A stretch of 64,000 nucleotides of DNA. It comes from Psammoneis japonica (lineage: Eukaryota). Positions within the stretch are counted from its first letter, which is position 1; the number at the start of each line of letters is the position of its first letter. Positions 4,356-64,000 of this stretch are shown here, in pieces. The notes beneath the pieces are model-generated. The model had not been told where the DNA came from. It saw only the letters and a list, made by a program, of their open reading frames with translations, and ran no database searches. A program made the position numbers and the translations under genes. Location of the stretch: assembly GCA_008632985.1 (NCBI GenBank), contig QPGO01000009.1:372001-436000 (forward strand), written 5' to 3'.

Positions 4356-4421
4356 TTCGTAGTTTCGTTTCTGTAGATTTCGTCACCTTGCACAACATGC
4401 GGGAGCAACATTGCTGTGCCC

Positions 4422-39202: not shown

Positions 39203-40750
39203 AGGTTGGATGGGGGGTGGCGGTGTCTTGTTGCTCGAGACGAGCAAGAGCTGCAATCGTTGGGAAAGCTCTGCAAGATTCTTTCCAATGCGTCTCTTAG
39301 CAGGTGTCTTCATTGCCAAGTCCTCGGCGAGCTGCTCCTCCGTTTCGAAACTCATGCTTTTCGTCTCTCTCTGGTCCATCTTGTTCGAGCTTGGAGTTGA
39401 GCATTCAGCATGATTGGATTGATCGGCATGGAAAATGCCTTGCTCATTGTTGCTGGAATGTGCGAACCGGCAGACGTAGGCTTTGAAACAATGCTTCAAA
39501 AATTCGATGGCTTCTTCCTCCTCGACGCGCGTGCGGCATTGTCGGAAGCTGTTCTGGATCTTGTTGGCGGCGACACACCACACACGGTGTTGCTTCTTGA
39601 AGCGATTGAAGGATGACTGGATTTTAAAAGCTGCAGCGTTCTTGGCAATGTGGTTTCGAAGTGCTCTGTGGATTGTTGCGGCAGCGGCGTTCTTGGCAGC
39701 AACGAGCTTTGGGACGGTTCGGAAAGCACGCTGGATCATTTTGACGGCGCTGATCTTTTTCCGGACCATGTTGAAGGCTGGAGGAATGGAGTGGACAAAG
39801 ACGGCTGTCGAAACAGGCAAGGACGCGCTGACTCCATTGGTGAGTCGGGACGGTGACGTTTCATTTGCAGCAAGAAGTGCACGAGGTTGAGCGTCGACCA
39901 AGGCGAGTGCGTTGGTGGCATTCTGGCGGGTGCAACGGGCTTGCGCAACAATGTCCAACGGTGCCACCAGGAAATCAGAAACATCGTGCGTAGACTCATT
40001 CAAACCAAAAAAAACCTTTCCGTCATGGTTGGCGGTCGCCACATTTGTCGACATTCCGCAGGGACGAGTTGGCGTCGTAGTCCACGAATGCGACAAGGTC
40101 GGACGCAGGAACTTGAGGACGGCCTTGGCAACAATGCAAGGACCGGATCGTGTGTTGCTCTGCTCGAGTAAAATATCCGCTTGAATGATTGGTAGTTCCG
40201 CAAGCCGACTCTTCATGGCATCAAGTACAGCCGTTTCAAAATCGTCGGGATCCGCGTCGGATGGGCAAGGCTTGAACACGAGTTCAACGCCTGCGAAAAT
40301 GGACCTTGTAGAAAATAAAGTAGAAGCGCTCTTGATCACATAATCCACAGTAGTGTCCATTCTCGGCACATGGGATGGACTTTTCATCATAATAGCCAAG
40401 GTAGAGCCTTGATAGGTAGTGGAGTGAAACTTGAAAATCGGTTCGACTCCTCGAAACTTGGTGGCAAGACGCGCGAGTTTCTCGATGTACGATTTGAACC
40501 AAGCGCCATGCGAATTGAAGTGTGCAGCATTGACATTCGAGTATGGAACAATCGAAAGAGACTCTTGGGATGTTGGGGTGAGAATGAATTGAGTCGTCCC
40601 CGTTTTCTCATCGTCGAAAAGCTTCTTCGAGATTGGCTCCAACGGGAGAAAGACGGCAAAGGCGGCGAGAACGGCTTTGCTCACCAAAGCGACTACACTG
40701 CCAAGGATGGCAGCAAAGAGGACACTACAGATCAAAAGGACGATCGACAT
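39086..40750 (-). CDS. Hypothetical protein with N-terminal hydrophobic segment and IQ-like motifs; probably pseudogenising
   Basis: MSIVLLICSVLF start; IQRAFR, IQSSFNRF, IQNSFRQ. The stop TGA corresponds to CGA in the sister repeat, so the frame probably once ran to ~38684. Confidence 0.6.
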   Translation of the reverse strand: MSIVLLICSVLFAAILGSVVALVSKAVLAAFAVFLPLEPISKKLFDDEKTGTTQFILTPTSQESLSIVPYSNVNAAHFNSHGAWFKSYIEKLARLATKFRGVEPIFKFHSTTYQGSTLAIMMKSPSHVPRMDTTVDYVIKSASTLFSTRSIFAGVELVFKPCPSDADPDDFETAVLDAMKSRLAELPIIQADILLEQSNTRSGPCIVAKAVLKFLRPTLSHSWTTTPTRPCGMSTNVATANHDGKVFFGLNESTHDVSDFLVAPLDIVAQARCTRQNATNALALVDAQPRALLAANETSPSRLTNGVSASLPVSTAVFVHSIPPAFNMVRKKISAVKMIQRAFRTVPKLVAAKNAAAATIHRALRNHIAKNAAAFKIQSSFNRFKKQHRVWCVAANKIQNSFRQCRTRVEEEEAIEFLKHCFKAYVCRFAHSSNNEQGIFHADQSNHAECSTPSSNKMDQRETKSMSFETEEQLAEDLAMKTPAKRRIGKNLAELSQRLQLLLVSSNKTPPPPIQPGSLSSNANESCLNQEQEPLNPFALHLLVRKEAQTRRPR

Positions 40751-45150: not shown

Positions 45151-46233
45151 CGCATTGCTGCTGTGCTTTTCAAAACGTCCTTCTTGGTGAATCCAATCCC
45201 AAAGCACAATCAGTAAATCGCCTCGCCTTGAATATCCCAGACCGCCGTACCGCCGTGCCGCAACCTAGACACGAGCACCTCAACGTATCCGCTTCTTGGC
45301 CCGCAACCACGGTGAATGATAATTCTGTCTCTGTGTACGTACAAGAAGGCAAGAGCGAGTTGAGTGGATGAAATACAAAAGAAAAAGGAACAACACGATA
45401 CACGATCACGACAAGAACACACGTACCTTACTCTGCAACGACAAAAGCCGGCAGCAAGCAGAACGCCCATGGCCACTGCAAAGAGCGCCATGGTCAAAAG
45501 AGAAACACAATCAACTCCTCCATTTTACTGCCGTGTTGTTTGAGTTGATTGTCAGAATTATGAGCAAATCAAGAGCGAGCGGAATTCAGCATCGGATTGT
45601 TCGTGTACCAGAAGCACGTAAAGTCCACGGAGCCTCAGTCCTCGGTCTTCCACGACTCGTGTGCTCTCGGTGCCTGGCAGGTTTCGACAACTTATCCTCT
45701 AGTGGGATCAGATATTTTCAAAAATGTCGGAACCGGTACTGGCATGCCGAATCTTCCCAAAACGAGCGGCAAATCGATCGCGAGCGTCATGGTGAAGTTT
45801 CTCGCTTCGTTCTTTGATTTGATTGTGTTGTTGTGTGGTCGCGCGTTGGTTAGTCATCAGATCTTTGCGGACGCACATCAGACGTAGATTTCGAACATTT
45901 CAAAATGTATGAGCATGAATGTTATTTTGTCTTGATATCTTTCGGATCTTGCATCTCGTGGAATGACAAAATTGTGCTGATGCATCGATCTTTACCGAGC
46001 TGTTCTATTGGGAAGGAGACTGGTGGTCCCGTGCAAACAGATTTCCATGTGGAAGGAAGTTCGCAGCGCTGTGAGTTCAGGGATGGAGCCTGCGACACGA
46101 TTTGTCTTTGTCTCCAGTTCCTTCTGCTTCAAGATCGCACTTGGCCCACAAAACAGCTCTTGTCCATCTTTTGTGTTGCAAAAGATCTCTTTTCAACGGG
46201 ATCCAGCGATGAGAAAAACTGACAAGGATTACA

Positions 46234-48624
46234 GTGGACAAGAGGCAGCAGCTGTCAATGCTTGCAAGCAATGGTCTTAAATCATTTGGCAGTTGCAACA
46301 GCCCACCTGGCAGCCTCCTCATTGAGCTCTTTGCTCAGATGCTTGAGACACTCTCCAAAGCCGCCTGCATTTACGACTGCAGTCTCAAAGTGCCTCTGCT
46401 TCTTGCGGCCAGTGATGCCCGCGAAGGAGTCACTGACAACATTGTTGATGCTTGTTTCAGCACCCTGCTTCCCCAAGTCGGATGCAGCAAAGAGCGCAAC
46501 TGCCATTTCACGCTGGGCAACAAAGATTGCACTCTTTCGATTGCAAGCCAAAGCATCAAGGCCATCCAAGGAATTGTCAGTCATGTGTCGCAAGTGATTG
46601 CTGGCACCAAGAAGAGCCAGCAGTTTGGTGTCAAATCCTCTGTGTCAGAGGGTGCTGTGAAAGTTCCCGTCAACCACCAGTGCAATTTTGAATCCATCTT
46701 CCGGAAAGGACGAGTCTCGGACAACAAAAAGGGGTCCCACACTGAAGTTTTTGAAATCAGCAAGTGTCTTTTGACCAAAGAGCAGCAGCATGCCTTCAAG
46801 ACGAATGAGGGCAAACAGACCATCCAGCTTGTCCTTCACTGCTGCACCCTCGAACATGATGTGGACGGCATGGTTTCTGTGTTGAATCCTGACAAGGGAG
46901 AGCCGCTTGATCTTGTGTTCAAGATGAAACTTGGCGTTTCCTGTGAAATGCTCTCCAATGCCATTGAATGCAGATGCATGGGCAAACTTGGCCTTGAAGG
47001 CATCATGCTCAAGGCAGTCAATGAGCTCAGTGAGGGCAACAAAGTTGGCTTGAAAAAGCTGCTTGAAACTGCCCGCAAATGTGACCGGCCAGATTTCTTT
47101 GTCTCATTTGGAGCACAAAACCATGACAGAAGAGGAATTGCAGGCCTTTTTCATTGCTTTCAATGTGTTGCCAGAGTCCTTTTTGGAAGCTGCTCCAATC
47201 CCCGGCAAAGACAACACACTGCTCAAAGTTCCCCAGTGTGACATTCAGCAAACATGGCAGATGACACAATTTGTTGCACCGGGTGTCTCGCCCCAGTTGC
47301 AGTCACGGAAGAAACAAAGCAGGCAAGCATTTGATGTGGTGCCCAGTGAGCAGCCTCAAGAAGTGGCTCCCGTTGATTGTTTGACCCTTGACTCAGAAGG
47401 ACTCAGCCAAGGAATTGCCGCTGGGTTCTCCACTCCCTCTTCCAACATGAAAGAGCCGCCAAAGGAAGAAACGAGCAAACCTTTTGGATTCTCGCATTCC
47501 ACCATCACGAAAAAGCTGCCAAAACAGGAGCTGCACGAAGCCAACCAAGGAGCTGTTGGCAACTTTGAGCAGTGGAACAATGAGCAGACTGTCCCAACAA
47601 TCCAGTCAAGGAGGTGGTGGGCTCTCCTTTGCCATGACAAGCACCAAAGCCCCAAGCAATGGTCAAGGAGGTGGTGGCTTCTCCTTTGGCACAACAAGCA
47701 CTGAAGCACCCAGTGCCAGTCAAGGAACCTGCACGGGCTTCTCTTTCACCTCAAGTGAAACAACGGATGCCAAGCAAGGAACAACCACTGGATTCTCTCT
47801 TGCCCCAAGTGGAATGATGGATGCCTGGCAAGGAGCCACTGGATTCTCTTTTGCAAGTGGTTTGATGCAAGGTGGCGCTGCTGGGCCTCTGCAAGTGCAT
47901 GATTGTGTCAGCACCAAACCGCCTTTTCAATTGCCTCATGTGGGTCTAAAGCTGCCTTCCAATGGATCTTTGTTGCAAGTGCTCCGTGCTGGACCGCCCA
48001 AAGAAACTGCTGCTGGCTCTGTGAAGTTGCAGATGAGTGGATCGACTCAAGCGGCATCGGGCGGACCTCTGCAAGTCCCCATTGTGTGCTTCTTGAAGCC
48101 GCCGGTGAGTGTCTCACCAAAAGGAGATGCTGTGGCCAAGCCCATGATGGGCCCTTCATTGCAAGTCCCGTTGCACCCTTCTTGAAAAGCTTTTGGTGAG
48201 TTTCCCACCAAAAGGAGTTGCTGCGGCCAAGCTGCCGCCAAGTGGAACACCGCAAATGAACAATGTGAGCTTGACGATGACAACAATGGATCCATTGCAA
48301 GCGCCCAAGATGACTTCCATGAAAGGACCACCCAAAGGAGCCGATGCTGGTCTCTTGAGTGGCTCTGTCATCAACTCTGCTGGTGCACTCACCTCGAAAG
48401 AAAATGCAGGCATGCCCAAGACCCCTTCCTCCAAGAAGCCCAAGGGCAAGGGTGCCAAGACACCCATGCACAACAGCAGTGATGTCATTGGTGGCCTCAA
48501 TCGAGGCATTGCCACCCATCGTCAGTTGGGGTGCAGCCAGTCAGAATGCACCAATGTGGGTTCGAGCGGTGATTCAAGCCACGTTGTTGTGGTCAGACTC
48601 ACAGCCAGTCAGATCGCAACATGA
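46234..48624 (+). pseudogene. Decayed host gene with GFSF-type low-complexity repeats
   Basis: Consecutive broken ORFs; GGGFSFG, TGFSFT, TGFSFA repeats; Tyr nearly absent. Confidence 0.45.
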
Positions 48625-49599
48625 ACGGTTGAACCAACAATGCAAGCAGTGAGTGGCCCAAACAAAAAAACAACAATGTGGGGATGTGTGTGAAAAGGAT
48701 GGAGTTTGCTTGCTTCTTTCATCTGCACTGAGTTGGACTCTGGGGCATCTTGATGTTTTTTTGTGCACCGCTGCTTCTTTTTCATGCAGCTGGTTCATGC
48801 AAAGCAGGGTGCTAGAGAGCACCACATGGAAGCAAAATGTTCACAGACCATCATCCTGTTGCAGCTCATGTGCAAACAAAGACTTGCTGAAATTGCAAAC
48901 CTCAACATGAAATGGCCCAAAGAGTGCACACCCTCCTGCTCTGACAAAAGATTAGATCACAACTTTGCACAGATGCTGAGACTGAGTCTCTGACCATCAG
49001 GCAACGGCCTGTGTCCCTGAAGAGCAAAGCCCTTTGTGATGATGTTGACCACATGCAAGAGCTTGGGAAACTGCTTTTCTGAACAGTTCACAGCTCGCTG
49101 AGATTGCCAGGAATGTGACGAGTTTGCTGGCATGAAAAATCTGCAATGCCTTTTCTGGTTGCCGTTGCAGCAACATGTCCGAGCATGCACACGTGCTCCC
49201 AATGACTCTTGTCAATTGTTGCTGGTGGTGAAAAGTTGTCATGGCCAAAAAACTGCTTGCTGGCATGCATGTGTTGCTGGCATGATTTTTGTTGCTGGTG
49301 CCCATTGCCCCCACACTTGTTGCTGGTTTGAGGGCAACGATTTTTCATGTGTTTCACTTTGTTCCCGTCATGCCTTGCTGCCGGCAACAAATGTCATGAT
49401 GTCACAAACCTGAAATGCTGTTTCTGGTTCAACCTGCAACAAGTGTGTGTGCACAACGGCAATTTGCATTTGAATCGAGATGTGGCCATTGATGTGCACC
49501 ATGGTCGCATCGCCCCCCCTTTTGCCACTAGAATGCACCAAGACAACAGTGCAATGCAACTACAACAATCACCAGCTGGCTCTGTGACATCACACACAC

Positions 49600-50130
49600 A
49601 TGCTGGTGCCCCTTGTGGCCTTTGCTGGAAGTCCAAATCAACAGGAACAATGGCTTCAGAGAGAACTGGGATTTTTGGCCCTGTGCAGGGCAAGCTCCTG
49701 CAGCCCTCCAGAGCACTTCACCAACTTGAGCATGCACTTGTGACAAGTGGAGATAATCTTGTAGATGTTTCTCATTCCAGACAGTGCCCCTTGCAGTCTT
49801 TGCTGGGGGTCCAAAGCAACAGGAACGACAGGTTCAGAGACAAATTTCCACAAAACTTTTTTGCCCGGCACAGAGCAAGCCGCAGTCCTTGAGAGCACTC
49901 AACCAACTCAAGCATGCACTTGTGACAAGAGAAGACAATCTCATGGATGTCTCTTGTTCTGAATGGTGCCCCTTGCAGTCATTGCTGGAGGTCCAAAGCA
50001 ACAAGAGCAAAGAGCTCAGAGACAGAAAATTCAAGGGCTTTTTGGCCCGGTGAAGAGCAAGCAGTTGTCCTTGTGAGAGCACTCAACCAACTCAAGCATG
50101 CACTCATGACAAGCAGAGACAATCTCATGG
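49600..50130. repeat. Tandem repeat, 3 x ~180 bp
   Basis: gtgccccttg..gtccaaa..gagcact..accaact..agcatgcact..tgacaag occurs three times. Confidence 0.85.
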
Positions 50131-50365
50131 CTCACTTGCATTGCACAAGGATGGCACAACACAACAGCACAAACAATGCAAGCATCACACATGCAAAGCT
50201 CACAGCAAAGCAAAACTCACACGATTGTGGTTCCATTCTGAAAGTGCAGGAGTTCCATGCAGCTCTCAGTGCAAAAACATGTGGCGGTCTTGTGTGCTGT
50301 GACGATGCGCATGTCCCTGATGCGAGTCCCAACACTGTCACAGGTTGAGTGGGGAATGACCTGGT

Positions 50366-50521
50366 NNNNNNNNNNNNNNNNNNNNNNNNNNNNNNNNNNN
50401 NNNNNNNNNNNNNNNNNNNNNNNNNNNNNNNNNNNNNNNNNNNNNNNNNNNNNNNNNNNNNNNNNNNNNNNNNNNNNNNNNNNNNNNNNNNNNNNNNNNN
50501 NNNNNNNNNNNNNNNNNNNNN
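50366..50521. other. Assembly gap (156 N)
   Basis: Run of N. Confidence 1.
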
Positions 50522-50820
50522 CTGGCATGACAGGAGTGACATTTCTGGTTTTGTCCATTGCAGGTAAAAAACCAGCAATGCGCCATGCCAGCAATGTCCC
50601 AAATTTGCTGGTGCCAACCAACAACCAAATTTTTCAACTCACCAGCAACAGCTGCATTCCTGGCAATCTCATCAGCTGTGTTGTTTTCCTGGTTCTGGAT
50701 TTTGCCTTGATGTGCAGACTGTTGCCATGGGGACAATCCAATGATGCCAGGGCCTGCTCCAGAGATCTTGAGAGAAAGTGAGAAAAGCAAGGTGGGAGAG
50801 ATTTCCGGATCTCTCCACCT

Positions 50821-51199
50821 TGCAACATGCGTTGTCATGTGCGCATTGTGTGTGTGTGTCTGTGCATTGAATAAAAGCACATTTCAATCGCACGTCAATC
50901 GTGGGTTCGTACGAAGTGCAGATCAGTCACACAGAAGTGATTGGATGTCGAGAATCGCAAATGCAATCGTACGATGATGTTGACATCTCATGTGTCAACA
51001 TCAATCGCACCCGGACAATCTGTCATCACGATCACATTCTCCGAAAGGCCTTTTGTCTGTGGGAGCAGTGCAAAAGGTTTAGGCCATTGAGAACCCGTTC
51101 GGAGAAACCCAAAATGATTGCGCAGAAACAATTCTCACAATTTTCACTTTTTGAACTTCACTCTACTTTCGTTTGCACTCGTTCTTCGAGCACAGTGCA
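50821..51199 (+). repeat. G2 5' LTR
   Basis: Gap-free alignment to 55618-55996; TGCA termini. Confidence 0.95.
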
Positions 51200-51235
51200 T
51201 TGTGCATGCACACCACAGAAGGTAACAAGTTCAAG

Positions 51236-52390
51236 ATGAAGCTTTCACCTCATGCAACCAATGCCAAAACTTCGTCAAGGCAGGAGAAAATCGTCCCTCA
51301 ACCGCTGGAATCGAACTCCGAGCCGAAGAGCCTCAAACCGAGCCAGCACCTCAAGATGGAGCAACGTTTTCATCCCGAGAAGAAGGACAGCCGTGCCTGC
51401 ACCATCAATGTTGAGTGCTACAAGAAACAAGGTGTCCCCAAGTTCATCGAATTTCTCAAGAGCTGCGATCAACTTCTGGTGGGCCAGAATGTCAGGAAGC
51501 AATCTGACAAGTTTCGTCTCATGCGCATGTTGCTCCAAGGAGATGCCCTGCGTGCTTTCGAGAATGCGGCAGCGAACCTTGAAGACGAATCTGTGGAAGG
51601 AAGCTTCGAGAAATGCCTGCAACATCTCACGAGGCATGTGTTTCCCAAGAACGCACTTTCGGTGCAGAAACGTTATTTGCGTCGTGATCTCAAGAAGCCG
51701 GAGTCCATGAAAGTGCGCGAAATTGCTGCTTGGGTCCAGGAAGTCAACGAAGACCTCAAGTTCTATCCTCCCTTTGGGAAGGAACAGAAGATCGAGGACG
51801 ACGAGCTCAAGGACATCCTCTTCAACCTTGCACCTCGAAAGTGGCAGCGTCAGTCGACCGTCCAGGGTTTCGAAATTTTGAAACATGCCCATGACGAGCT
51901 GGTTGAGTTCTTGGAGCGCCTGGAGGTCGCAGAAGACATGTTTGATGGCATTCATGCCAAGGCTGATGGCAGCGGCGGCACTGCATCAAAAGCCAAGAGT
52001 GGTTCCCAACGTGGTTCCAAAAATGGTCACCAACATGGTGCCGAAAAATCTCAGTCCGAGAAGTGGTGCATTTCATGCGAGAAATCCACTCACAACACGG
52101 ACAAGTGCTGGTCGATTAAAAGACTTGCAAAAGAACACCGTGGGAACTGTGAACCCGACCCGAAACGGCGCCGTTCAAATGGCAATCGCACGTGGTCTCG
52201 TCGCGATAACGACAACGCCGCTCGCAAAGAAGAGTTGAATGCCATGGCGATCCAAGCAGTTCAAAAAATGCTCAAAGCAAGTTCTTCGAACAATGACAAA
52301 AAACACAAGAGCAAAGATCATGATTCTGATGCCCTTGACGAGGAAAATTGTCAGTTTGAAAAAATGACGTGCAGTGATTCTGAGGAATGA
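51236..52390 (+). CDS. gag: G2 gag with CCHC zinc knuckle
   Basis: LLQGDAL, QKRYLRR, WCISCEKSTHNTDKC. Confidence 0.9.
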   Translation: MKLSPHATNAKTSSRQEKIVPQPLESNSEPKSLKPSQHLKMEQRFHPEKKDSRACTINVECYKKQGVPKFIEFLKSCDQLLVGQNVRKQSDKFRLMRMLLQGDALRAFENAAANLEDESVEGSFEKCLQHLTRHVFPKNALSVQKRYLRRDLKKPESMKVREIAAWVQEVNEDLKFYPPFGKEQKIEDDELKDILFNLAPRKWQRQSTVQGFEILKHAHDELVEFLERLEVAEDMFDGIHAKADGSGGTASKAKSGSQRGSKNGHQHGAEKSQSEKWCISCEKSTHNTDKCWSIKRLAKEHRGNCEPDPKRRRSNGNRTWSRRDNDNAARKEELNAMAIQAVQKMLKASSSNNDKKHKSKDHDSDALDEENCQFEKMTCSDSEE

Positions 52391-55300
52391 CTTGCACCGC
52401 AAGAGGAGTCTTGCGCTCTGCTGGACATCAGGAAGCCCAGAAAAAGGGCCAAAGTAATTCACACTAGTCCAGCAGTCGTCGCCTGCATGAGTGCTTCATC
52501 AGGTGAGGCGAAAAATGAGCCTCTGCGCATTCTCCTCGACAGCGGAACATCGTCAACCATAATTTTGCGCAAATTCACGCGGAAACTCAGAACAAAAGCA
52601 TCCGCCACCAAACTCTGGGAAACCAAAGGAGGGCTCTTCATGACTGACAGTCGATGTAAGATCCAATTCTCCTTGCCCGAATTTGACAAACATAAGATGA
52701 TTGAAACAACGGCACATGTTGACAACTCCCCTTCTTCTTCGAGTCGTCATGATGTGATCATGGGACGCGACTTAATGTCAAGTCTTGGGATGACATTGGA
52801 CTTCTCGAATGAAGAGATTAAATGGGAAGATGCAACTACTCCTGTGAAGAATGTTGACACACTCTTCGATGCCGATGTTTTTAAGTTGATTGCCGATCAC
52901 ATTGAGGAATCTCATGCAGTGATTGGTCTTAATGACAGGGTCAATCGGATCCTTGACTCAGACTGTCACGCTGCAAACCTCAATAATGTGACCGCAGCAG
53001 CCACTCATCTAACTCCTGAAGAGCAGAAGCAGCTGAACTTCCTCTTAAAAAGATTTGAAAACCTTTTCGATGGTTCTCTGGGCAAATGGACCGGGAAGCC
53101 GGTGGATTTAAAGTTGAAATCGGGCGTGAGTCCGCATCATGCCAAACCATTTCCCGCACCACAAGCCTTGGAGGCGACTGCTCGTAAGGAGGTTGAAAGA
53201 CTGTGCAAGTTGAAAGTCTTAAGAAAAACAAATTGTTCTGAATGGGCGGCTCCAACCTTCATTCAACCCAAGAAAAATGGTAGAGTTCGGTTCTTGTCCG
53301 ACTTTCGTGAGCTAAATAAGAGGTTAATTCGCACTCCGTTTCCTCTGCCCAACATTCAGGATGTGCTACAGAAGCTTGAAGGCTTCATGTATGCAACGTC
53401 CCTAGATTTAAACATGGGATGCTGTCACATCGAATTGACGCCGCATGCACGTCGCTTGTGCACGATCGTCATGCCTTGGGGCAAATATGAGCACTGTAGA
53501 CTCCCGATGGGGATCTGTGGAGCTCCAGATATTTTCCAAGAGCACATGAGTGAGCTCATGGCAGGTCTGGAGTTCGTCAGAACTTACATTGACGACACAT
53601 TGTGTCTTGCAAAAAGTGATTTTCAAGACCACCTCAAGAAGCTTGAAACGGTGTTCTTACGCCTAGAACAAGCCGGATTGAAGGTCAACGCCGAGAAGTC
53701 CTTTTTCGCTAAACCTGAAGTAGACTATCTAGGCTTTCATATCACCCGTAAGGGCATCAGTCCGATTCCAAAAAAAGTAGAAGCGATTCACGCGATCGCA
53801 ACTCCTAAAACTCGCAAGGAATTGCGACGCTTTATCGGTATGATCAACTACTATCGAGACATGTGGCCTCGACGATCTCATGTTTTAGCTCCTTTAGCCA
53901 AACTCACTTCTACCCAAGTAAAGTGGCAATGGACCGAAACAGAACAAAAAGCCTTCGAAAATATGAAGCGCATCATCTCCAAAGATATACTATTATCATA
54001 CCCGAATTTTAATATACCCTTTGAGATATATACCGATGCTAGTAATTCTCAATTGGGGGCGGTTATTACTCAGAAAAACCGACCAATTGCCTTCTACAGC
54101 CGCAAGCTGAATGGAGCGCAGACGCGTTATACTACAACGGAAAAAGAGCTATTGTCCATAGTGGAGACGTTAAAAGAGTTCCGAAATATACTGTTTGGCC
54201 AACATATAAATATATATACGGATCACAAAAATCTCACACACAAAAATTTCACAACGGACAGAGTCATGCGTTGGCGTCTAATAATAGAAGAATACAGTCC
54301 CAAAATAATATACCTTGAGGGCAAGGCAAATATTGTCGCAGACGCGATTAGCCGACTTACTATAAAGAAAATAGAACCTATGGAAACCCTCAGCACAGAA
54401 GAGCTAGCTGAAAAGGTCCTACCAAAATCCTACGACAATGTCTTTCCGTTAAATTACAAAGTTCTTGATTATGAACAAAAACGGGATAAAGACATTCTCT
54501 CCCAATTGTCAAATAAGACATTTCATACGAAGACTTTTCGTGGAGGCGAGCGAGACCGGTTGCTCATATGTCATAAGGATAAAATTGTCGTCCCGAGGAC
54601 GTTACAAAAGGCAGTGATAGATTGGTATCATACGTACCTTCTTCACCCTGGCATAAATCGAACAGAAGAAACAATCTCACAACACCTATGGTGGTCCACC
54701 TTACGTGAAGACATACGAAAATACGTGTCGAGATGTGAGACGTGCCAAAAATTCAAAAAGAAACACAAGAAATATGGACATTTACCTCCTAAGTGCGCAG
54801 AATCCGTGCCATGGGAACGACTGTGTGTGGACCTTATTGGGCCATACAAAATACGTCGTAAGGGAAAGAAAAAACCCCTAGTCCTGAAATGTTTAACTAT
54901 GATCGATCCAGCAACCGGATGGTTTGAAGTTGTGGAAATCCCAAATAAGGAGTCCATGACTGTAGCTGGACTGTTAGAACGAACATGGCTGAGCAGATGT
55001 CCTTGGCCATCGTCAATTACATGTGACCGTGGAAGTGAGTTCATCGGACACCAATTTAGAGAAATGGTGCAAGATGATTGTGGCATTGAAGTCAAGCCTG
55101 CAACTGCACGAAATCCACAAGCAAACGCAATTGTTGAACGCGCACATCAAGCACTGGGGAACATGCTCCGTACATTTGATTTGCAACACACACCTCTAGA
55201 TGCTGAGGATCCTTTCGCTGGAACACTGTCAGCAGCAGCGTTTGCGGCACGTTCTGCGCATCATGCCACTGCGCAAGCTGCACCAGGACAACTGGTCTTT

Positions 55301-55591
55301 GACAGAGACATGATGTTTAACGTCCAACATGTCGCGGACTGGAAATTAATTCAGCAGCGAAAACAAGAAATCACAAATAAAAATGACGCTCGAGAGAATG
55401 CTCGACGCACTCCTTGCACGTGCAGAGCAGGAGAAAAGATGCTGCTCGAGAAAGACTCGCAAAAATTAGAACAGCCCCATGTTGGACCGCACGCAATGAC
55501 AACGGTGCATGCCAATGGCACAGCACAGATCAAACGCGGCAACGTTTTTGACACTGTCAACATTCGTCGAATGATGCCGTTTGACGACTGA
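52391..55591 (+). CDS. pol: G2 pol (PR-RT-RNaseH-IN), in frame with gag after a TGA
   Basis: LLDSGTS, WAAPTF, YIDD, YTDAS, TDHKNL, HPG..RT, CETC, VDLIGP, DRGSEF, VERAHQ. Confidence 0.95.
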   Translation, partial: LAPQEESCALLDIRKPRKRAKVIHTSPAVVACMSASSGEAKNEPLRILLDSGTSSTIILRKFTRKLRTKASATKLWETKGGLFMTDSRCKIQFSLPEFDKHKMIETTAHVDNSPSSSSRHDVIMGRDLMSSLGMTLDFSNEEIKWEDATTPVKNVDTLFDADVFKLIADHIEESHAVIGLNDRVNRILDSDCHAANLNNVTAAATHLTPEEQKQLNFLLKRFENLFDGSLGKWTGKPVDLKLKSGVSPHHAKPFPAPQALEATARKEVERLCKLKVLRKTNCSEWAAPTFIQPKKNGRVRFLSDFRELNKRLIRTPFPLPNIQDVLQKLEGFMYATSLDLNMGCCHIELTPHARRLCTIVMPWGKYEHCRLPMGICGAPDIFQEHMSELMAGLEFVRTYIDDTLCLAKSDFQDHLKKLETVFLRLEQAGLKVNAEKSFFAKPEVDYLGFHITRKGISPIPKKVEAIHAIATPKTRKELRRFIGMINYYRDMWPRRSHVLAPLAKLTSTQVKWQWTETEQKAFENMKRIISKDILLSYPNFNIPFEIYTDASNSQLGAVITQKNRPIAFYSRKLNGAQTRYTTTEKELLSIVETLKEFRNILFGQHINIYTDHKNLTHKNFTTDRVMRWRLIIEEYSPKIIYLEGKANIVADAISRLTIKKIEPMETLSTEELAEKVLPKSYDNVFPLNYKVLDYEQKRDKDILSQLSNKTFHTKTFRGGERDRLLICHKDKIVVPRTLQKAVIDWYHTYLLHPGINRTEETISQHLWWSTLREDIRKYVSRCETCQKFKKKHKKYGHLPPKCAESVPWERLCVDLIGPYKIRRKGKKKPLVLKCLTMIDPATGWFEVVEIPNKESMTVAGLLERTWLSRCPWPSSITCDRGSEFIGHQFREMVQDDCGIEVKPATARNPQANAIVERAHQALGNMLRTFDLQHTPLDAEDPFAGTLSAAAFAARSAHHATAQAAPGQLVFDRDMMFNVQHVADWKLIQQRKQEITNKNDARENARRTPCTCRAGEKMLLEKDSQKLEQPHVGPHAMTTVHANGTAQIKRGNVFDTVNIRRMMPFDD

Positions 55592-55606
55592 CTCTAATGT
55601 GCAATC

Positions 55607-55617
55607 AGGGAGGCGAA
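55607..55617 (+). promoter_or_regulatory. G2 polypurine tract (AGGGAGGCGAA)
   Basis: Directly precedes the 3' LTR. Confidence 0.75.
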
Positions 55618-55996
55618 TGCAACATGCGTTGTCATGTGCGCATTGCACATGTGCGTCCATGTGTTAAGTGAAAGCATGTTTCAATCGCACGTCAATCGTG
55701 GGTTCGTACGAAGTGCAGATCAGTCACACAGAAGTGATTGGATGTCGAGAATCGCAAATGCGATCGTGCGATGATGTTGACATCTCATGTGTCAATGTCA
55801 ATCGCATCCGGACAATCTGTCGTCACGATCACATTCTCCGAAAGGCCTTTTGTCTGCAGGAGCAGCACAAAAGGTTTGGGCCATTGAGAACCCGTTCGGA
55901 GAAACCCAAAATGATTGCGCAGAAATGATTCTCACAATTTTCACTTTTTGAACTTCACTCTACTTTCGTTTACACTCGTTCTTCGAGCACAGTGCA
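55618..55996 (+). repeat. G2 3' LTR
   Basis: Matches the 5' LTR; followed by the TSD. Confidence 0.95.
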
Positions 55997-56049
55997 ACCT
56001 GCCCACACTGGGCCCAGTGTGCCTGTCTGTCTTGTCCACATGGGAGTGT

Positions 56050-58100
56050 GCTCCCCAGATCAGATGGCTTGCATGCCGTGAGTGAAGCACCCAACCCACA
56101 GCCTTGGTGATGACATCTGCTGTGGGGTCAATGATGATGCCAGGAATGTGTCAAGTGACAGTTTTCCCTGCCTCCCACCAGTCTTGGATCACAGAATGTG
56201 AGTGTCCCATCAGAAGTTGATGGCTCATCACCTTGATGGCAGACTCATTGTCAATGTAAAGAGGAGCAGGCTCCCCATGCTGTGGAAGAAAGCCAAGTTC
56301 CTTGAGTGCAGAAAGTGCAGAAAAAGAGCCTGGTTTTGGCACCAGCAGTGCTTGCCAATGATTCTGCTTCTGCAGAGCTTGCAGCTGTGGTGAGCTGTGT
56401 CTTGAAATGATGTGCAGCAGTGCCACCAGAGAGAGTGCATGTGCAGCCTGCAGAGTTTGAGCATCATTGCTGGGAAAGGCAGGCAAGCTGGGGTCATCCT
56501 CAAGCCATTCAAAGTTGCAAAGAAGAAGGCCAGGATCACAACGTGGTTTTTTTGTGCACAGCTCCCAGTCTTTGGAACAATGCAGACAATTGGCAACACA
56601 TTTTAACAATGAACAGTGCATGTCAGCTGGAGGCTTGGAAAATTTGGACAATGTTGTGAGAGAGCATCCACCATCTAAATGGCAACAGGTGAGTGAAAAA
56701 ATCAACTCCCTCCTCACCAGAAGACATCAGCGCAAGAACCCATGTTCAGTCTGGAGAGCTGCACATTCCCCAGCAGCTGAAGGAGGTCCAGCAGATGAGA
56801 GATGGGAGCAGCCTCAAAATTTCAGTCTGACTCACCTGGAGATGGTGTGTTCCAACTGTGAGTTTGGAGAACATGCTCAGCCCAAATCCTGCAATTGATG
56901 GCAGTGGAGTCATCATCCCAGATGAAATGCAGTGCACCCACAAAGCCTTGTCAATGTGGCTGCAGCTGGCAATGGCCACAGCCTTGAACAAATGTGCAAG
57001 ACAGAAGGCATCAACCTGTCCCAGGAGAAGTCCCTTCATGTGCCAGAGCAGACAAATTTGTCATGGGCAACAGTGCAAAACAACTGCTTGAATCAGAAAA
57101 AACAGAGCTGGTGTGCTTTTCCCACAACACACCAGCTTCAGAATGTTCTTGGAGCACATGGAGAAAAGGAGGGACAAAAAATTTGTCCAACTTGATGCTG
57201 AGTCATTTCTCATGTCATGTCACATGCGAGTCATCAACAGAATGCACAGGATGTGTCAGTCTGGGAACATGCATGAGCACACTGTGAGCATTGCCAAAGA
57301 AGTTGCAATGGGACATGCCAGCACTCAGTGCAAAGAACAGGCACTGGGTGGATTGGCTCATGCAGGACAAGTGGGTCAACATTCAACTTGCACAAAGCAT
57401 GGAGAGCTGGCACTAATTTCTTTGACCGAACACCACATTGTTGGGGTCAATGCTCACCAGCAGGTTTGACAAGATGCTGCCAATGAGGGTGAGTGAGAAT
57501 GGCATCCTTTGGGTGCAAACCTCTGTGTGCTCAGCAAGCCCAAAGCAAAGCCCTTGCAATTTTGGCATGCAGGAGTGCCAGCTCTTTCACATCTGTCCTT
57601 TCTTTTGGGTTGTGGTGTTGACAATGTGCGAGAGCTTGGGAAACTCCTTTTCCAAGACAAATGGTTGCTCCCCTGGCTCTGGATTGTGCCTTGATGTGAT
57701 TTCAACATGAAAGCAGCAAGCAACCAAATCTTCAAAATGACACCCGTGCCCTCTGCTGCAAACACTGGCAATGATTCCTGTGGCCTTCCTCACTCATCAC
57801 CTGAATGACAAGGGCCCAAATTTCTGCTCACTGGTCCAAAGGTTTGCAGTGCAATGGGCCACTTTTTTGCCACACCACTTCTCATTTAAAGCATCAAGAA
57901 CAATGTTGTCAGACAATCTGCACTGAAAGCTGTGCAGCAGGGGTGGAGGAGAGCTGGGCCTGCTGCCACTGCCTCAGTTGCCAGCCCAAAGCCCCCCATC
58001 TTCACTTCAATGCCTTTTTGCTGTGCTTGTGCGCCTCTCATTGGACAGTGGGGTCCTTTGCCACACATTTGATGCCTTCCAAGCAAAAGCTGTGGCAAGC
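56050..58100 (-). mobile_element. Degenerate Ty1/Copia (CoDi-like) RT / RNase H remnant
   Basis: LLLGQVDAF (RQVDDF-like), ELIF..C.LD....TTLSKFS..P..H..LLK, PLYIDNESA, IQDW, HIPGI..ADVITK..GWVLH.RH C-terminus; right boundary approximate. Confidence 0.8.
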
Positions 58101-61039
58101 ATCATGGCTTGGATTGCCACAAGAGTGATGAGAGGAGGAGCCACATGTGTTGGTCACCACCGCGTGCTTGCTGGAGTTTTCTCAAAAATTGCAAAACCTC
58201 ATTTACGCGCTGCAGCTTGGCAAACAAAGCACTGCAAGCAATTGGAGACGGTGGCACAAAAGCCCTTGGACATGTGCTTTGAAAAATGGCACAATCGAAG
58301 TTTTGAGCGTGTCGCGACACCATTTTGGAGATGACGGGAAGGCGACCCTAGCAGCAGGTGGCGCGAAGCAAAATGTGAAGGTTAATCCTTCCCGTTTGTG
58401 GGATGACATTGGTGAGGAGCTAGTTTCTGAGATTTCAGATTGAAAGGGACCGTGAGCTGTTGCGGCGCATTTTGCTGTTGTTGCGTTGTGATTCCATTCC
58501 CGATGTTATTCGGTCCAGCGTGTTGGAACGGGTTGGCAACAACCCCAACCTCCGTTACCGCGTTATCAAGGCCAGACCAGATATTTTCAATAAATGAACG
58601 TTTTTCTCTTTACATGGCATTTGGAACAGCAGGTTTCGAGGAGTGTGGGATGTACGAACATCGTCACATCCATAGCTTCACTTGGTGTTTGTCATTTTTT
58701 GTAAACAACCTACAACGATTTAGTAAAACAAACCATGATGTATCTTTTTGTTTCTACCAAAGCCCAGTCTTCGTACCGGTACGGCGTAGGTGGTCTCTAG
58801 CAACCATTGGTCTATTCCTTCGTACGAACTATTCTCTCCTCCGACTTGACTCATTTGCGTTGCGTCTTGTTGTAGTCATTCTCGTTTAGTTGAAATACCT
58901 TTGCTCATCCTAAAGCGCAAAGGTACTTGCTTTTCTAGTGAGATGCTAAAATATACTGGGGTAGTTTCAAATAGAGACTACAAGTAGGCAATACAACCTA
59001 CTCAACGTGATCTGGGAAGACCAGGCGTTTACGGCTTGCATGACGCCAATCAACATGGGGCTACGAGAATAAAAAGAGGGTCTTTCGATTTTGTCGTTCT
59101 AATTTGTCGTCATGCCCAGTTTGTGCATACTTCGTTTGTGATCTACCAAAGATCGGTCACACACGAAATCATAACTTTAACATAAAAGCTGAAACAATTG
59201 CCCAAGGCGGATGGGATTTCCCTTGAGCACTGGCAAAAAGACTTCTTGGCCCTTCTGAGTATCGGCAAAGGAAACAAAGAGATTAGCCACCAATTGCATC
59301 ATGAATGCATCGTGCTGAAATCACGCAGGAGAGTCAGGGTGCTTTCGAGCCCGCCTTGTTCAAAGATTTGCTCCACGTAGTGTCGTCGTCGTCGTTTTGC
59401 GCTTCGATAGATCCACTACGAAATAATACGAGACGGTGGCAACAGTGATTGCTCTGTCCTTTTTGTTCTCGCAGAATCAAGCAGATATTGGGGAACACCG
59501 TCACCATCGCATCCATTCAACCGAATCACCTATCGGAGATATAGCACATCGCTACTCACTCTTTGTTGTTTTAGTTGCAACTAAGGAGGTAACTTTGGCA
59601 TTAGCGTTCTCCGTTCCAACGACAAGAATGCCTTGTCTGAACGGAGCGTCACCGAGGCGACACCAGAGCAACAAAACCATGGCTAGACTGTCCGACGGAT
59701 CGCATAGACTCAGCCGGCCATGTTGGATGATCCCACTTTATACTGAGACGAAAGGAGATTTTCTTTACAGTTCAAAAACCAAACGTGGCCCATTCTTGGG
59801 TTCCCCTGGTTCGCCGCGAACCTCCAAATACCAAAAGTTCAAACTTCCATGCCGAATCAGCCTCATATACATTTCCGGATGTATCACCTGGCGAACAAGA
59901 AGAGTTGTAGCCAACGTAACAATCGCCACAATTGCGGGAACTCGTGGATTGGCTGGCAAGATTACAATTGTAGTAGCTGCGGCGGCAGTTAGAGCGGCAA
60001 AGATTCCGAAAGAAACTACGAAAGCCTATAATTATGAGAGAAATATCGTAAAAGAGAAGAAAAGAGAATGAGCGACTTGTAAACAACGAGACGTGCGAGT
60101 ACACACAGTACGTAAGGCACTTGAAGCACACATCATCTTTTGCGGCGAACAATCCAAACAACAACATGCACCCATGCAAGTGACTCGACACTACAACAGC
60201 GGATTTGAATGGTCGTCGTCGTTGTTGTTCTTTGTCAAAATGCTGCGCAAGAAAGAACGCGATTGAGTTTTGAGTTTGGCTCTCATTGTACTGGGGACAC
60301 AAAGGCGCTGCAATTCACTAGCAGTAAGCTTGAACAATTTGTGAAAATGACAGAGATTCGCATCTTCTGTGTGCTGTCGGGGTTTTTAACAACGTTGGTT
60401 GTGCGACAACGGCGTTGGTGTGTTGCTCATGGTGAAATGAATCATAAATACCGGTAACATCGCTCACTTATGTTATCACCGCGGGTCGCGAGCTCGCGCT
60501 TCGCGCCCGCGTCAGCTTGACGTCATCACCAAAATTCCAAAAAATCAAAAATCGCAACATCCGATGATGATTCTCCCGACTTCCGACACACACTTTTTTG
60601 TTCTGCGGGTGTCGGGTGTTACAGTACAGCTGTTCTTGGTGTGATGTTGATGTTCTGTTTCAGAAGAGAAAATACTGTACTGCACTAAAACAGAACTCCT
60701 TTCGTTGCTCTTGTGTTTTATGGGAATCATGTGTTTTTTTGTCGAGTGTGGATGATTGTTGGAACACATGACATCGGGTGGACGCAAGTTGTGCAAACTT
60801 TCGTTTTGTTTGCTGCATCGTCGTTGTACTCCATGACGGGTCAGGACGTCATGTCCGGAACGAAACACCCACCACTTTTCCACTGGTCTCATGATTTGAC
60901 ATTTTGGGACTCACCTCCATGGGCAGCACCTTTCAGTTCGGCGAGGTCGCTCCCCGATGTCATTTGTCCCATTCAAGTGTGAACTGAGAGTTGCAGACCA
61001 GTGCACGTGATGCTTGTGATGGCTCTCATGGGAAAGAGG

Positions 61040-61794
61040 AAAGAAATGTCCTCTCAAGAAAAAAATGTGTCATTGTCGTCATGATTGTTGGCATTGTGGC
61101 GCTCTTCATGGGAGGGTGAGTGTCTCCGAGCAGGGCCCACGGAACAAACAACTCACCATCCGTCAGCTCCGTTGTTGTCATTGTCACATGGCTGCTTGCA
61201 CTAACACTGCATGCTCTCATTCCAGTCACGCATTTGTTCTACAGTGGAGACTCCATGTCGAGTGAAAAGAGTGATGGCAAAGATGTCTGTGGCTTGTCGT
61301 CTCAAATGTTTGGCATTTTGCTCTTGTTCGTCAGCATCTGCTTTGACGGTGGCACAGGTGCGTGCGAGGACAAGCTCCAAGCTCATGACCAGTGTCCATT
61401 CAATGTTCAATTGGGCAAAACCATCTTGGCCGGTGCGTCAATCCTTGCAGACCTGCTCAGTGAAGTTCGTGCCCTTTTGCAAACGGGCTTTTTGTTGGTG
61501 GCTCTCGGTTTGAGTGGTGCACTCAGACAAGTTTTTTTTGTTGCCATTGCCAAATTTGGGGCCCTGACGTGTTCCATCATTGGATTGGCACACAAGGTTG
61601 TTTTTTGTGGACATTCCTCGAGTGGGACTCAATTTTGCGGACTCGTCGTGAGTGTGTCTGCCATGGTTCTCACCTTTTTTGGACATCATCATAATCAACA
61701 ACGGCAGCAGCAGCAGACAACACCAGAGGATGAAGAAATGGAAAAGACACTTCCCGATGAACTGCGCCGATCATCCAAGCAGCAGCGATGTTGA
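61040..61794 (+). pseudogene. UAA-family nucleotide-sugar (UDP-galactose, SLC35B-like) transporter pseudogene
   Basis: GILLLFVSICFDGGTGACEDKL (AYEDKL expected) and IAKFGALTCSIIGLA; internal deletions; TpA-depleted. Confidence 0.75.
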
Positions 61795-63229
61795 GCAAGG
61801 TCTGCTTGCTGAGAGTGGAACAGAAAACAAGCATGGTGCTTCTCTCGTAGCATGACACACAGGCAACAATGGTGCGCTGTTTGACTTGTTGTGATGATTC
61901 GCAGCATGCTGATGCAAGCAGCGCGCCATTCATCATGATTTGTGAACCTCTCTAGAGTGTGATTCAAACACCGACAACCAGCTTTGTTTCCACGAATGCC
62001 ACCCCCATTGTCATTTGCTCCAACAGCAAGAATGGTTTCCAAGCGACTGAGAACACAGAAATGCCAAATTGACAATCTGCAGCTCGACCAATCGGTCTCT
62101 GCCCGAGATGGCTCCAGGATGAAATGACAATGCCGCATTCAAACAATCGAACCGATTCTGACCTTGTCCCATTGTTTGTCTTTTGATGGCAAGCTCCGAC
62201 AGCAACAATGACTGCCATGTCCGAGAGCCACACGGAAATCCAAATCGGTCACAATCGGCTTGTCCAGGAACATCTCTGGCGAGAGAAGAACCCAATGGTC
62301 CGAGGCAGAGTCGCATTCAAACAGAAAAGCACCACCAACACAGTCCACATGGTCATGTTTGTCATGTCTCCAATTGCAAGAATGAATCATCTCATCTCCG
62401 TTCAACATGAGGGACTTGCCAAAGTCACAAGCAACCTTTCGTCCAACCAATTCTTGGCCAGTGCCTGTCCATGATTGCTTGTGACTGGGTGGAAGGAGTG
62501 ACAGTGTCGACAGACAACAACCTTTGTTTGGAAACTTGGATGTCATCTGCCGACATCTCCATCATGCATCATTGGTCGTCTCTTTGTTGGTGTTTTTTTG
62601 AGAGCTGCCAATTGCTCACCATGGTGTTGCTCAGCTCACCACGTGCTCACCACGTCTGTCGGCCATCAGGTTCTCGGATGTTCCTGACCCCTCCTCCCCA
62701 CGGCCAGATGCAGTCTCAGTGCATTGTGCATTCAAACCTTTTCAGATTTGAATAAAAACATGAACCGCACCATGCATGTAAGACTCATCTTTGCTTGAGT
62801 GCACATGCTCCAGTGTTCGCGAGCACCGTGAAACCAACAAAAAAGCACGCATCAAGACAAGTCGCTGTCAACACCAACAAAACAACATGAGTCAACCATG
62901 ATGGTTTCAAAACATTCGTCTCCATCACCTTCCCCGATGCGTCGCCACTTTGTTCATTTGCCAATTCCTCCAGCACAACAGGTGATGTTGTTTGTGTGGC
63001 CGTCGCATGCCCACAACTGCCAAAATTAGAGCTTGTTTGTTGACATTTTGTTTCTCACGCTCCAGTGCCTGCCGCAGCTTCTGTCATGAATGAAAACGCT
63101 GTGGTTGCCTTTCCCATGACTGCCATGCCCTGTGCTGTTCCTGATGTGCCTGGTTCAAGAGATGATGAAGGTGCTTTGCCTCTCCTCAACCAGCCACCGA
63201 CAAAATTGTTTGCTGCAACTCAAGCTGTC

Positions 63230-63955
63230 TCTGGCACGCTCCAGCACCTCCCACAGTTGCCACAATGAATCCAATGCTGTCAGCGCCATTCAGGCAACTG
63301 CCACACCCTGCACTGTTCCTGCCACACGTCTTGCTGCAGGCAATGACGTTTCTATGGCTGTCGTGTTCCCAAAATGTCAAAAGTGCGATCGCACTGTCTC
63401 ACGCTCTATTTTGCCACGCTCCAGCGCCTCTAACAGGTGCCACAGTGAGTGCAATGCAGTCAGCACCAATCAGACCCCATGCTGTTCCTGCTGTGCGTGT
63501 TGCCACAGGTGGCAACGTTTCTATGGCTGTCATGTTCCCACAATGTCAAAAGTGCGATGTCACTCTCTCACGCTCTGTTTTGCCACGCTCCAGTGCCTCT
63601 AACAGGCGCCACAGTGAGTGCAATGCAGTCAGCACCATTCAGACCCCACGCTGTTCCTGCCACACGTGTTGCCACAGGCAATGACGTTTCTATGGCCATC
63701 ATGTTCCCACAATGTCAAAAGCACAATGTCACTCTCTCACGCTCTATTTTGCCACGCTGCAGCGCCTCCCACAGTTGCCACAATGGATGCAATGCCGTCA
63801 GCACCATTCAGACAACTGCCACACCCTGCGCTGTTCCTGCCATGCTTGTTGCAACAGGTGATGACGTTTCATGGCTGTCGCATTCCCATGACATCAAAAG
63901 TGTGATCGCACTGTCTCTCACGCTCTATGTTGCCATGCTCCAGCGCCTCCCACAG
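63230..63955. repeat. Tandem repeat, ~4 x 169-181 bp
   Basis: caatgc.gtcagc.cca..ctgttcctgc..acgtttc..tcaaaag..cact.tctc..cgctct..ttgcca.gct.cag.gcctc units starting near 63260, 63441, 63610 and 63779. Confidence 0.9.
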
Positions 63956-64000
63956 AGGATGAATCAACAGAAACGGGAACTGTGTGTCTTTGCACAGTGT

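Follow-up and report, generated by a model that had tools for sequence, protein, structure and literature searches.

The stretch of DNA analysed here (the window: 64,000 nucleotides of the diatom Psammoneis japonica, contig QPGO01000009.1, positions 372,001 to 436,000 of the forward strand) contains a retrotransposon with long terminal repeats (LTRs), referred to below as element 1, and this report deals with the loss of TpA dinucleotides from that element and from the DNA around it. A direct repeat bounds an interval of 4.8 kb, and the limits of the LTRs were fixed by an alignment that included the flanks. The components of element 1 are as follows (window coordinates; TpA is also written TA).

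50817..50820 (+): left copy of the target-site duplication (TSD), ACCT; flank sequence, its four letters common to the joint of the empty-site contig described below
50821..51199 (+): 5' LTR, 379 bp, TG...CA; 5 TpA against 28.7 expected and 21 CpG against 19 expected
51155..52390 (+): open frame of 411 aa at the place of gag, without a Pfam match, inside the TA-erased 5' part
52391..55591 (+): pol frame (reverse transcriptase, RNase H and integrase, in the Ty3/gypsy order), open; Tyr changed to Cys or His in 12 of 32 conserved columns
53390..54845 (+): TpA-retaining central core, 10-25 TA per 250 bp; Tyr kept in 15 of 21 conserved columns
55608..55617 (+): polypurine tract GGGAGGCGAA, adjoining the 3' LTR
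55618..55996 (+): 3' LTR, 379 bp, TG...CA; 28 transition differences from the 5' LTR
55997..56000 (+): right copy of the TSD, ACCT; flank sequence

The features of a Ty3/gypsy carrier (direct LTRs of the TG...CA type, a 4-bp TSD, a polypurine tract and the order reverse transcriptase-RNase H-integrase) are present, and the pol frame gave Pfam matches to RVT_1 (residues 261-419), RT_RNaseH (508-603) and Integrase_H2C2 plus rve (702-877). No primer-binding site and no gag domain (Pfam was used for the domains) were recognised in element 1, and an Rfam scan of the whole window gave 0 matches. Element 1 is a Ty3/gypsy LTR retrotransposon that looks intact but is dead.

The two LTRs align without a gap and differ at 28 positions, all of them transitions (28/28, P ~1e-5 with an assumed transition fraction of 0.67). 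Eighteen of these differences make up nine adjacent double swaps of TG against CA, at LTR positions 29-30, 31-32, 41-42, 45-46, 60-61, 179-180, 240-241, 249-250 and 309-310, and five more are TA/TG sites (three where the 5' LTR has the TA, at 53, 151 and 261, and two where the 3' LTR has it, at 49 and 355), so that the TA type accounts for 23 of the 28. The rest are three differences of the CpG type (CA/CG at 145 and 205, TG/CG at 37) and two of other type (51 and 190). Within one LTR the outcome switches between TG and CA at adjacent swap sites within 4 bp. When 28 random transitions were placed on the 5' LTR, the maximum number of TG/CA doubles in 100000 simulations was 5, against 9 observed, and chance does not explain the pattern. 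The original prediction, made by hand alignment, had described 379-bp LTRs without indels, with about 28 differences, all transitions, among them nine TG/CA doubles and five TA/TG sites in both directions; the alignment gives exactly these counts and the site list agrees in each of them.

A TG/CA double may derive from an ancestral TA or from an ancestral CG, and the coding region was used to polarise the change. Both pol frames of the window, that of element 1 and that of an older Ty3/gypsy element at the window start (element 2), were aligned with 120 database homologs (52-60% identity), and a column was called conserved when the same residue occurred in at least 80% of the 120, which gave 26 Tyr and 35 Arg columns. 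Conserved tyrosines (TAY, where Y is a pyrimidine) are now Cys or His (TGY or CAY) in 10/26 columns of element 1 and in 23/26 of element 2, while changes of the CpG type at conserved arginines number 1/35 and 2/35, respectively. Among the 120 outgroup homologs at most 2 of 32 Tyr columns are Cys or His in any one. In this 32-column set both strand outcomes occur, with 6 Cys and 6 His in element 1 and 16 Cys and 10 His in element 2, and other changes in the pol frames follow the same TA rule: Ile to Met or Thr (ATG or ACA), Leu to Ser or Pro (TCA or CCA) and Val to Ala (GCA). Since Tyr has been lost in both frames while Arg is nearly untouched, the ancestral state is, on this comparison, TA and the product TG or CA.

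The composition of the LTRs points in the same direction. They contain 21 (5') and 24 (3') CpG against 19-20 expected (observed/expected ratio, o/e, 1.1-1.2), and 5 and 4 TpA, respectively, against about 28 expected. A one-rate model with ancestral TA fits the LTR sites kept, changed in one copy and changed in both (2/5/9; G = 2.1, loss 0.81 per LTR). If CG is taken as the ancestral state instead (21/3/9), the model is rejected (G = 30.2). At the rate given by the CpG singles, CpG decay would yield 0.05 doubles where 9 are observed. At position 53002 element 1 has CA, against TA in 94% of the depth of its family among the sequencing-run contigs introduced below. The prediction that TA and not CG was ancestral is thus borne out by the Tyr and Arg columns, the LTR dinucleotide counts and the count models, and the independent resolution of each TA on either strand, which it had also claimed, agrees with the presence of both TG and CA outcomes and with the fit of the one-rate model.

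The two LTRs of one insertion are identical at integration. With identical LTRs at the start and a TSD marking a single event, the reciprocal differences arose in the chromosome. The same swaps are seen in the flanks and in tandem repeats that are not part of a transposable element, and the TpA change is supported as a DNA-level event that followed the insertion. Both this timing and the exclusion of RNA editing or reverse-transcriptase error before integration had been put forward from the LTRs; the 4-bp TSD, the dissimilarity of the LTRs and the swaps in sequence outside of transposable elements uphold the former, and pre-integration change is contradicted by the LTR-LTR differences themselves.

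The locus was also compared with contigs assembled from exact 31-letter words of a sequencing run, the only one of three runs that contained it; the other two gave no contig here. One of them (depth 25, where the flanks have a depth of about 50) joins 50816 to 55997 with four shared letters, i.e., it carries the empty site, and the insertion is therefore still polymorphic or heterozygous. The depth of the element 1 family sums to thousands, so that the family has many copies. In the depleted flanks, contigs of depth 47-60, which would not be obtained with noisy reads, agree with the window: over 204 bp on the left 3 letters are different, and on the right, where the contig is unbranched and 1660 bp long, a single letter differs over 204 bp. 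At 50650 and 50671, in the left flank, the window has CA where a depth-47 contig, the only one there, has CG; these could be allelic haplotype differences of the CpG type or differences between assemblies. Another contig (depth 60) passes from 51606 directly to the beginning of the 3' LTR at 55618, with 4011 bases skipped, and probably represents a family member elsewhere in the genome that has an internal deletion.

For the dating of insertions the consequence is direct. The naive divergence of the LTR pair is 0.074 (Kimura two-parameter distance 0.080), and outside of pyrimidine-purine (YpR) steps it is 2/171 = 0.012, an inflation of the age of about 6-7-fold. The expectation that LTR ages would be inflated in this genome holds for the element 1 pair (0.074 against 0.012); the process behind it is regional and does not characterise the genome as a whole.

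This regional character is apparent along the whole window, where the TA o/e is 0.30 with a bimodal distribution. Depleted domains (3.1-10.7, 14.3-21.9, 35.9-40.1, 46.0-52.6, 55.4-58.4 and 60.7-64.0 kb) alternate with gene domains. Pooled after trimming, the former (27968 bp) have a TA o/e of 0.06, CG 0.36, TG 1.73 and CA 1.76, and the latter (25800 bp) TA 0.56, CG 1.06, TG 1.14 and CA 1.14. The G+C content is equal in both (0.48-0.50), and the AA/TT o/e is unchanged by domain type (1.26/1.18 against 1.18/1.19). The domains, the second element and the host gene that served as control are listed here.

1..4850 (-): element 2, older Ty3/gypsy element, cut by the window start; pol frame 99-3107, with 26 of 32 conserved Tyr now Cys or His
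3101..10700 (no strand): depleted domain; TA o/e 0.08, CG 0.35
11165..14209 (+): host MOV10-like helicase gene, control in a normal domain; 13 of 16 conserved Tyr kept, none Cys or His
14301..21900 (no strand): depleted domain; TA o/e 0.06, CG 0.22
35901..40100 (no strand): depleted domain with CpG mostly kept; TA o/e 0.07, CG 0.79; 240-bp and 166-bp repeats
46001..50820 (no strand): depleted domain left of the insertion; per 250 bp 0-2 TA and 1-9 CG; 182-bp array and a run of N
55997..58400 (no strand): depleted domain right of the insertion; per 250 bp 0-2 TA and 0-2 CG, up to about 58000
60701..64000 (no strand): depleted domain; TA o/e 0.09, CG 0.60; tandem array of about 170-180 bp at 63232-64000

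Both retrotransposons are hit, the MOV10-like gene is intact, and depleted and normal domains alternate within the 64 kb. The tyrosines kept by the MOV10-like gene exclude a general misreading of TA. The TpA process is regional and limited to silent stretches of 3-8 kb without genes, between which the gene domains lie. The TA boundaries of the domains are sharp to 100-300 bp, and the domains change over at about 10.6, 14.4, 21.9, 36.0, 40.1, 46.1, 58.4 and 60.8 kb. CpG extends a few hundred bases farther into the depleted side than TpA, with such margins near 10.0-10.7, 14.3-14.6, 21.2-21.9, 46.0-46.7 and 58.1-58.5 kb; either TA loss reaches farther than CpG loss or the domains expand at their edges with time. 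The run of N (156 letters, 50366-50521) lies within the depleted flank about 300 bp upstream of the 5' LTR, and is either a gap in the assembly or a stretch that was withheld. The roughly 28 kb of depleted DNA contain 81 six-frame open reading frames (ORFs) of at least 110 aa on both strands, long frames being this frequent because TAA and TAG have been erased. A Pfam search of these 81 ORFs returned an ankyrin match at 35936-36580 and two matches below the cut-off, and no transposon or virus family.

The comparison of domain types allows the target to be defined beyond the dinucleotide. Tetranucleotides of the form YTAR (R being a purine) survive in the depleted domains, with 23 TTAA against 33 in the gene domains and 26 CTAA/TTAG against 77. 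Those of the form RTAY are practically gone, with 0 ATAT against 81, 0 ATAC/GTAT against 127 and 3 GTAC against 88. Along these lines, six of the nine LTR doubles are RTAY, three have one favourable half-site and none is YTAR. The target motif is TAY (equivalently RTA) on either strand. The strand outcomes along the two elements are not significantly clustered (runs test, P = 0.93 and 0.12), and the over-dispersion of TG against CA in 500-bp bins is similar in depleted and gene domains (2.09 and 1.78), with no signal of strand patches.

Within element 1 the loss is graded, with 0-3 TA per 250 bp at both ends and 15-25 in the centre. All 15 of the 32 conserved tyrosines that are kept lie within 53390-54845, and outside of that span none of 11 has been kept. 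The TA-poor ends and the exclusively central Tyr indicate that TA loss began at the two ends and advanced towards the centre, or that it spread into the element from the depleted DNA on either side. Regions of different age also show the order of events. Element 1 has kept its CpG (CG o/e 0.95-0.97) and lost the TA of its ends, element 2 has a TA o/e of 0.17-0.24 and a CG o/e of 0.83-0.91, and the oldest blocks have lost both; TA loss is therefore fast and CpG loss slow. In the LTR pair we count about 1.67 events per TpA, 0.06 per CpG and 0.006 per other site per copy, which would amount to a TpA excess of about 100-fold or more per nucleotide, a figure that comes from one LTR pair and only 2 background events in 171 non-YpR sites. 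Methyl-CpG decay would be the natural reading of the slow component.

The pol frame of element 2 is open over 1002 codons despite the loss of 26 of 32 tyrosines, and its LTR piece at 4790-4850 differs from that at 1-61 by 3 differences, one TG/CA double (which counts 2) and one TA/CA single. Tandem arrays located inside depleted domains (49604-50130, about 182 bp; 63232-64000, 170-180 bp; 38723-39202, 240 bp; 38015-38325, 166 bp) have copies that differ mostly through TG/CA swaps, with 20 doubles in the best-aligned copy pair of the array at 63232-64000 and 10 in the 182-bp array. TA/CG doubles, which would need the opposite direction of change, are absent from 14 of 15 repeat pairs, the exception being 2 in a pol-pol match of 64% identity.

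To see how far the signature extends we have turned to public databases. A search with the pol of element 2 gave 150 matches, of which 77 were scored and 73, longer than 1600 aa, were left out. Three pol fragments (P0312, P0271 and P0333) have Cys or His at 12/14, 10/12 and 15/21 conserved Tyr, none of which is kept, with Arg intact; there is no Tyr at all in any of the three fragments, and Cys and His are raised, so that element families other than those of the window carry the signature as well. When P0333 is aligned with an intact relative of 67% identity (P0253), the 32 Tyr of the latter face 12 Cys, 16 His, 4 other residues and 0 Tyr, while 41 Arg are kept and none has changed to Cys, His, Gln or Trp. 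P0333 is an NCBI protein from a contig of 2273 bp, and those of its relatives that have a name come from diatoms. Among 118 additional relatives none was strongly affected, which puts the signature in 3 of 315 scored pol homologs (120 + 77 + 118) and leaves 312 without it. By these protein comparisons the signature is present outside the window and rare in public data. A distant element on a metagenome contig (L001, 46% identity), used as control only, has a normal TA o/e of 0.96, and viral contigs searched for related loci gave no match.

In the literature searched we found no report of TpA hypermutation or TpA bias in diatoms, and TpA-specific hypermutation of nuclear DNA only in one 2026 preprint, on the rhizarian alga Bigelowiella natans. 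There, 230 of 231 mutations in two integrated viral regions of mutation-accumulation lines were A>G or T>C, all on TpA (Mettrop et al., bioRxiv 10.64898/2026.01.13.699255), at about 6e-7 per site per generation, some 1000 times the background. The preprint also describes TpA-depleted clusters of the genome enriched in CpA+TpG, with reverse-transcriptase ORFs among them, and its authors propose an ADAT2-like adenine deaminase (10.64898/2026.01.13.699255). The likeness to our case is close: in the integrated giant-virus and virophage DNA of B. natans the change is almost only A:T>G:C, on TpA, giving TpG or CpA according to strand, and it is restricted to particular regions of foreign or silent DNA (orders of magnitude above background in B. 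natans). The signature looks like the same one, in a second and distant lineage for a phenomenon that has been reported once. The differences are that the host here is a stramenopile diatom and not a rhizarian chlorarachniophyte, that not viral DNA but LTR retrotransposons, tandem repeats and entire blocks without genes are the targets seen, that the erasure is deeper (TA o/e 0.06 against 0.45 in the viral region of B. natans), and that a slower loss of CpG accompanies that of TpA. The gradient from ends to centre and the extended TAY motif were not encountered in the sections of the preprint consulted. Our evidence is comparative, while that from B. natans consists of de novo mutations in culture lines, the process being active in some lines and inactive in others.

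Other systems share part of the picture. Like repeat-induced point mutation (RIP) of fungi, the process acts on DNA, produces only transitions, disables transposons, leaves blocks of biased dinucleotide composition and lets copies diverge after insertion. Fungal RIP is a C:G>T:A change, mostly CpA>TpA, that creates TpA and stop codons and lowers GC, the opposite of what is seen here, where TpA is destroyed, no stops appear and GC is unchanged. The gradient within element 1, a high-copy element, also argues against a targeting based on homology as in RIP. In diatoms, a study of the methylome of Cyclotella cryptica reports that CpG methylation is concentrated in repeat blocks as long as 30 kb, between which lie gene-rich blocks free of methylation (PMC5124317). 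The kilobase-scale alternation of repeat and gene blocks and the loss of CpG to TpG or CpA resemble our window, but the change of Tyr to Cys or His and the LTR swaps are not explainable by methyl-CpG decay. The animal deaminases ADAR and APOBEC3 edit retroelements in a context-specific, transition-only manner, and act before integration (ADAR on double-stranded RNA, A>I; APOBEC3 on minus-strand cDNA, C>U), so that their changes are common to both LTRs; here the LTRs differ reciprocally and DNA outside of transposable elements is affected. APOBEC3 yields G>A, not A>G. ADAR has a preference for a 5' U or T that is similar to the one found here.

Taken together, we consider it highly probable that a post-insertion process acting on DNA turns TpA into TpG or CpA in silent domains of the diatom genome and has hit element 1. 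The two strands of the palindromic TpA are hit independently, and one ancestral TA can thus become TG in the first LTR and CA in the second; stop codons are never created, and frames stay open. As has been proposed for B. natans, the conversion may be driven by an enzyme that is directed against foreign or silenced DNA, and the accompanying loss of CpG may be the ordinary decay of 5-methylcytosine in methylated repeat blocks. The most economical chemistry, one that we advance tentatively and at somewhat less than even odds, would be the deamination of adenine to inosine in T-A-Y on either strand, the inosine being read as G at replication. Enzymes of the TadA type act on a U-A-C loop that resembles TAY. 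The change could also start from the other base of the step, by oxidation of the thymine in R-T-A to 5-hydroxymethyl- or 5-formyluracil (by a TET/JBP-type dioxygenase), which would pair with G and give T>C; TpA being palindromic, T>C at RTA and A>G at TAY are indistinguishable in sequence. Hydroxymethyluracil is concentrated at TpA in the DNA of dinoflagellates, and 5-formyluracil causes T>C mutations. We know of no oxidised-thymine modification in diatoms, and the sole published case of a TpA signature proposes adenine deamination, so that this route appears unlikely to us. Much less probable still is an error-prone patch repair, in which T:G mismatches left by the deamination of 5-methylcytosine would recruit a Pol eta-like polymerase, an enzyme that makes A>G errors at WA (W being A or T), close to CpGs. 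The depleted domains do lose CpG as well, and diatom repeat blocks are CpG-methylated (PMC5124317). Yet WA includes AA, and next to some 23 or more TpA events the two LTRs show a single AA>AG change, the AA/TT o/e is unchanged between the types of domain, and element 1 has lost most of the TpA of its ends with its CpG intact (o/e 0.95-0.97), so that TA loss precedes any visible damage to CpG.

Methyl-CpG decay by itself, in which the two LTRs would have received TG and CA, respectively, from an ancestral CG, does take place in the depleted domains (CG o/e 0.22-0.79), and it has left three CpG-type singles in the LTRs, three array columns with CG as third state and three internal sites where most copies of the family have CG and element 1 TG or CA. 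As the source of the LTR swaps it is nevertheless very improbable, because the LTRs already contain 21-24 CpG against 19-20 expected and about 18 more would imply an ancestral o/e near 2, because the CG model is rejected, with practically no doubles predicted, and because it is Tyr rather than Arg that is lost in both elements. As a sole cause, CpG decay fails in the LTR pair and holds only for some old repeats at 36-40 kb. We give an equally small chance to a uniform, genome-wide bias against TpA from which genes are kept normal by selection, an idea that would suit depleted domains covering about half of the window without recognisable genes. Against it, TA is common in host genes at codon 3-1 positions, where it is mostly synonymous (28 of the 56 TA in the C-terminal frame of MOV10), the flanks of genes are normal over a few hundred bp, and the unselected centre of element 1 has 15-25 TA per 250 bp against 0-3 at its ends. 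A sequencing or base-modification artefact, with TG read from one strand, CA from the other and the assembler choosing, a possibility that the original prediction had itself raised, would be compatible with the two CA/CG discrepancies at 50650 and 50671 and with the use of contigs rather than reads in our comparison. A 50:50 strand conflict would break contigs made from exact words, and those of depth 47-60, an unbranched one of 1660 bp included, agree with the window in the depleted flanks; a switch between TG and CA within 4 bp is not expected from the strand majority of long reads, and three independent database proteins carry the same signature, so that we regard an artefact as slightly less probable even than those two. 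The least credible of all, to the point of being nearly negligible, is an ADAR-like RNA editing or a reverse-transcriptase error before integration. Adenosine deaminases that act on RNA usually make their A>G change after a 5' U (10.64898/2026.01.13.699255), but both LTRs are copied from one template and would share such changes, the TSD marks one insertion, and flanks and tandem repeats outside of transposable elements are affected too.

Several points weigh against the interpretation that we favour, a DNA-level conversion of TpA after insertion. Its chemistry is one that we infer, and the lack of strand clustering gives a processive single-strand enzyme no support. For the nine LTR swaps the ancestral state is derived from the polarisation of the coding region and from count models rather than from an outgroup of the LTR. 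In the old tandem arrays 3 of 17 TG/CA columns show CG as third state and none shows TA (a test that is insensitive to TA ancestry, TA being practically extinct in those arrays), and the number of doubles in three repeat pairs at 36-40 kb is about what CpG decay by itself would give; TG/CA swaps are not always derived from TpA. The TA-rich centre of element 1 could instead come from gene conversion by an intact copy. As to the sequencing run, it may be the very sample from which the window was assembled, and the joint at the empty site has just 30 letters on its shorter side.

A broader reading would be that diatoms possess an active defence, targeted through chromatin, that removes TpA (TAY) from silent DNA, retrotransposons soon after their insertion included, through an enzymatic conversion of bases on one or the other strand, that proceeds inward from the borders of an insertion while this is still heterozygous, and that is homologous to the Bigelowiella process, both representing an ancient counterpart of RIP on A:T pairs across the SAR group (stramenopiles, alveolates and rhizarians); we regard this as possible and would not yet give it even odds. 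A second lineage with a much deeper trace suggests a widespread and unrecognised disabling of mobile DNA in protists. In genomes with such a process dating by LTR divergence would be inflated, dead elements would keep long open frames that gene callers report as spurious ORFs, and old repeats would escape similarity searches. Database proteins free of Tyr and rich in Cys and His, such as P0312, P0271 and P0333, would be a simple marker for other genomes. Some pennate diatoms are transformable, and in these the enzyme could be sought by knock-out.

The genes of the normal domains complete the picture of the window. The nearest named homologs of the MOV10-like protein (56-63% identity) are from the pennate diatoms Cylindrotheca, Seminavis, Nitzschia, Mayamaea and Bacillariaceae, against 42-45% identity for centric diatoms of the Thalassiosira type, which marks the host as a pennate diatom. 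This helicase appears as two adjacent open frames, 11165-12796 and 12824-14209, and the break of about 27 bases between them may be due to a short intron, to a stop or to a frameshift. Another normal domain carries a histone acetyltransferase of the p300/CBP type, with a bromodomain and a weak PHD match, in one frame of 1302 codons at 23330-27238 on the minus strand.

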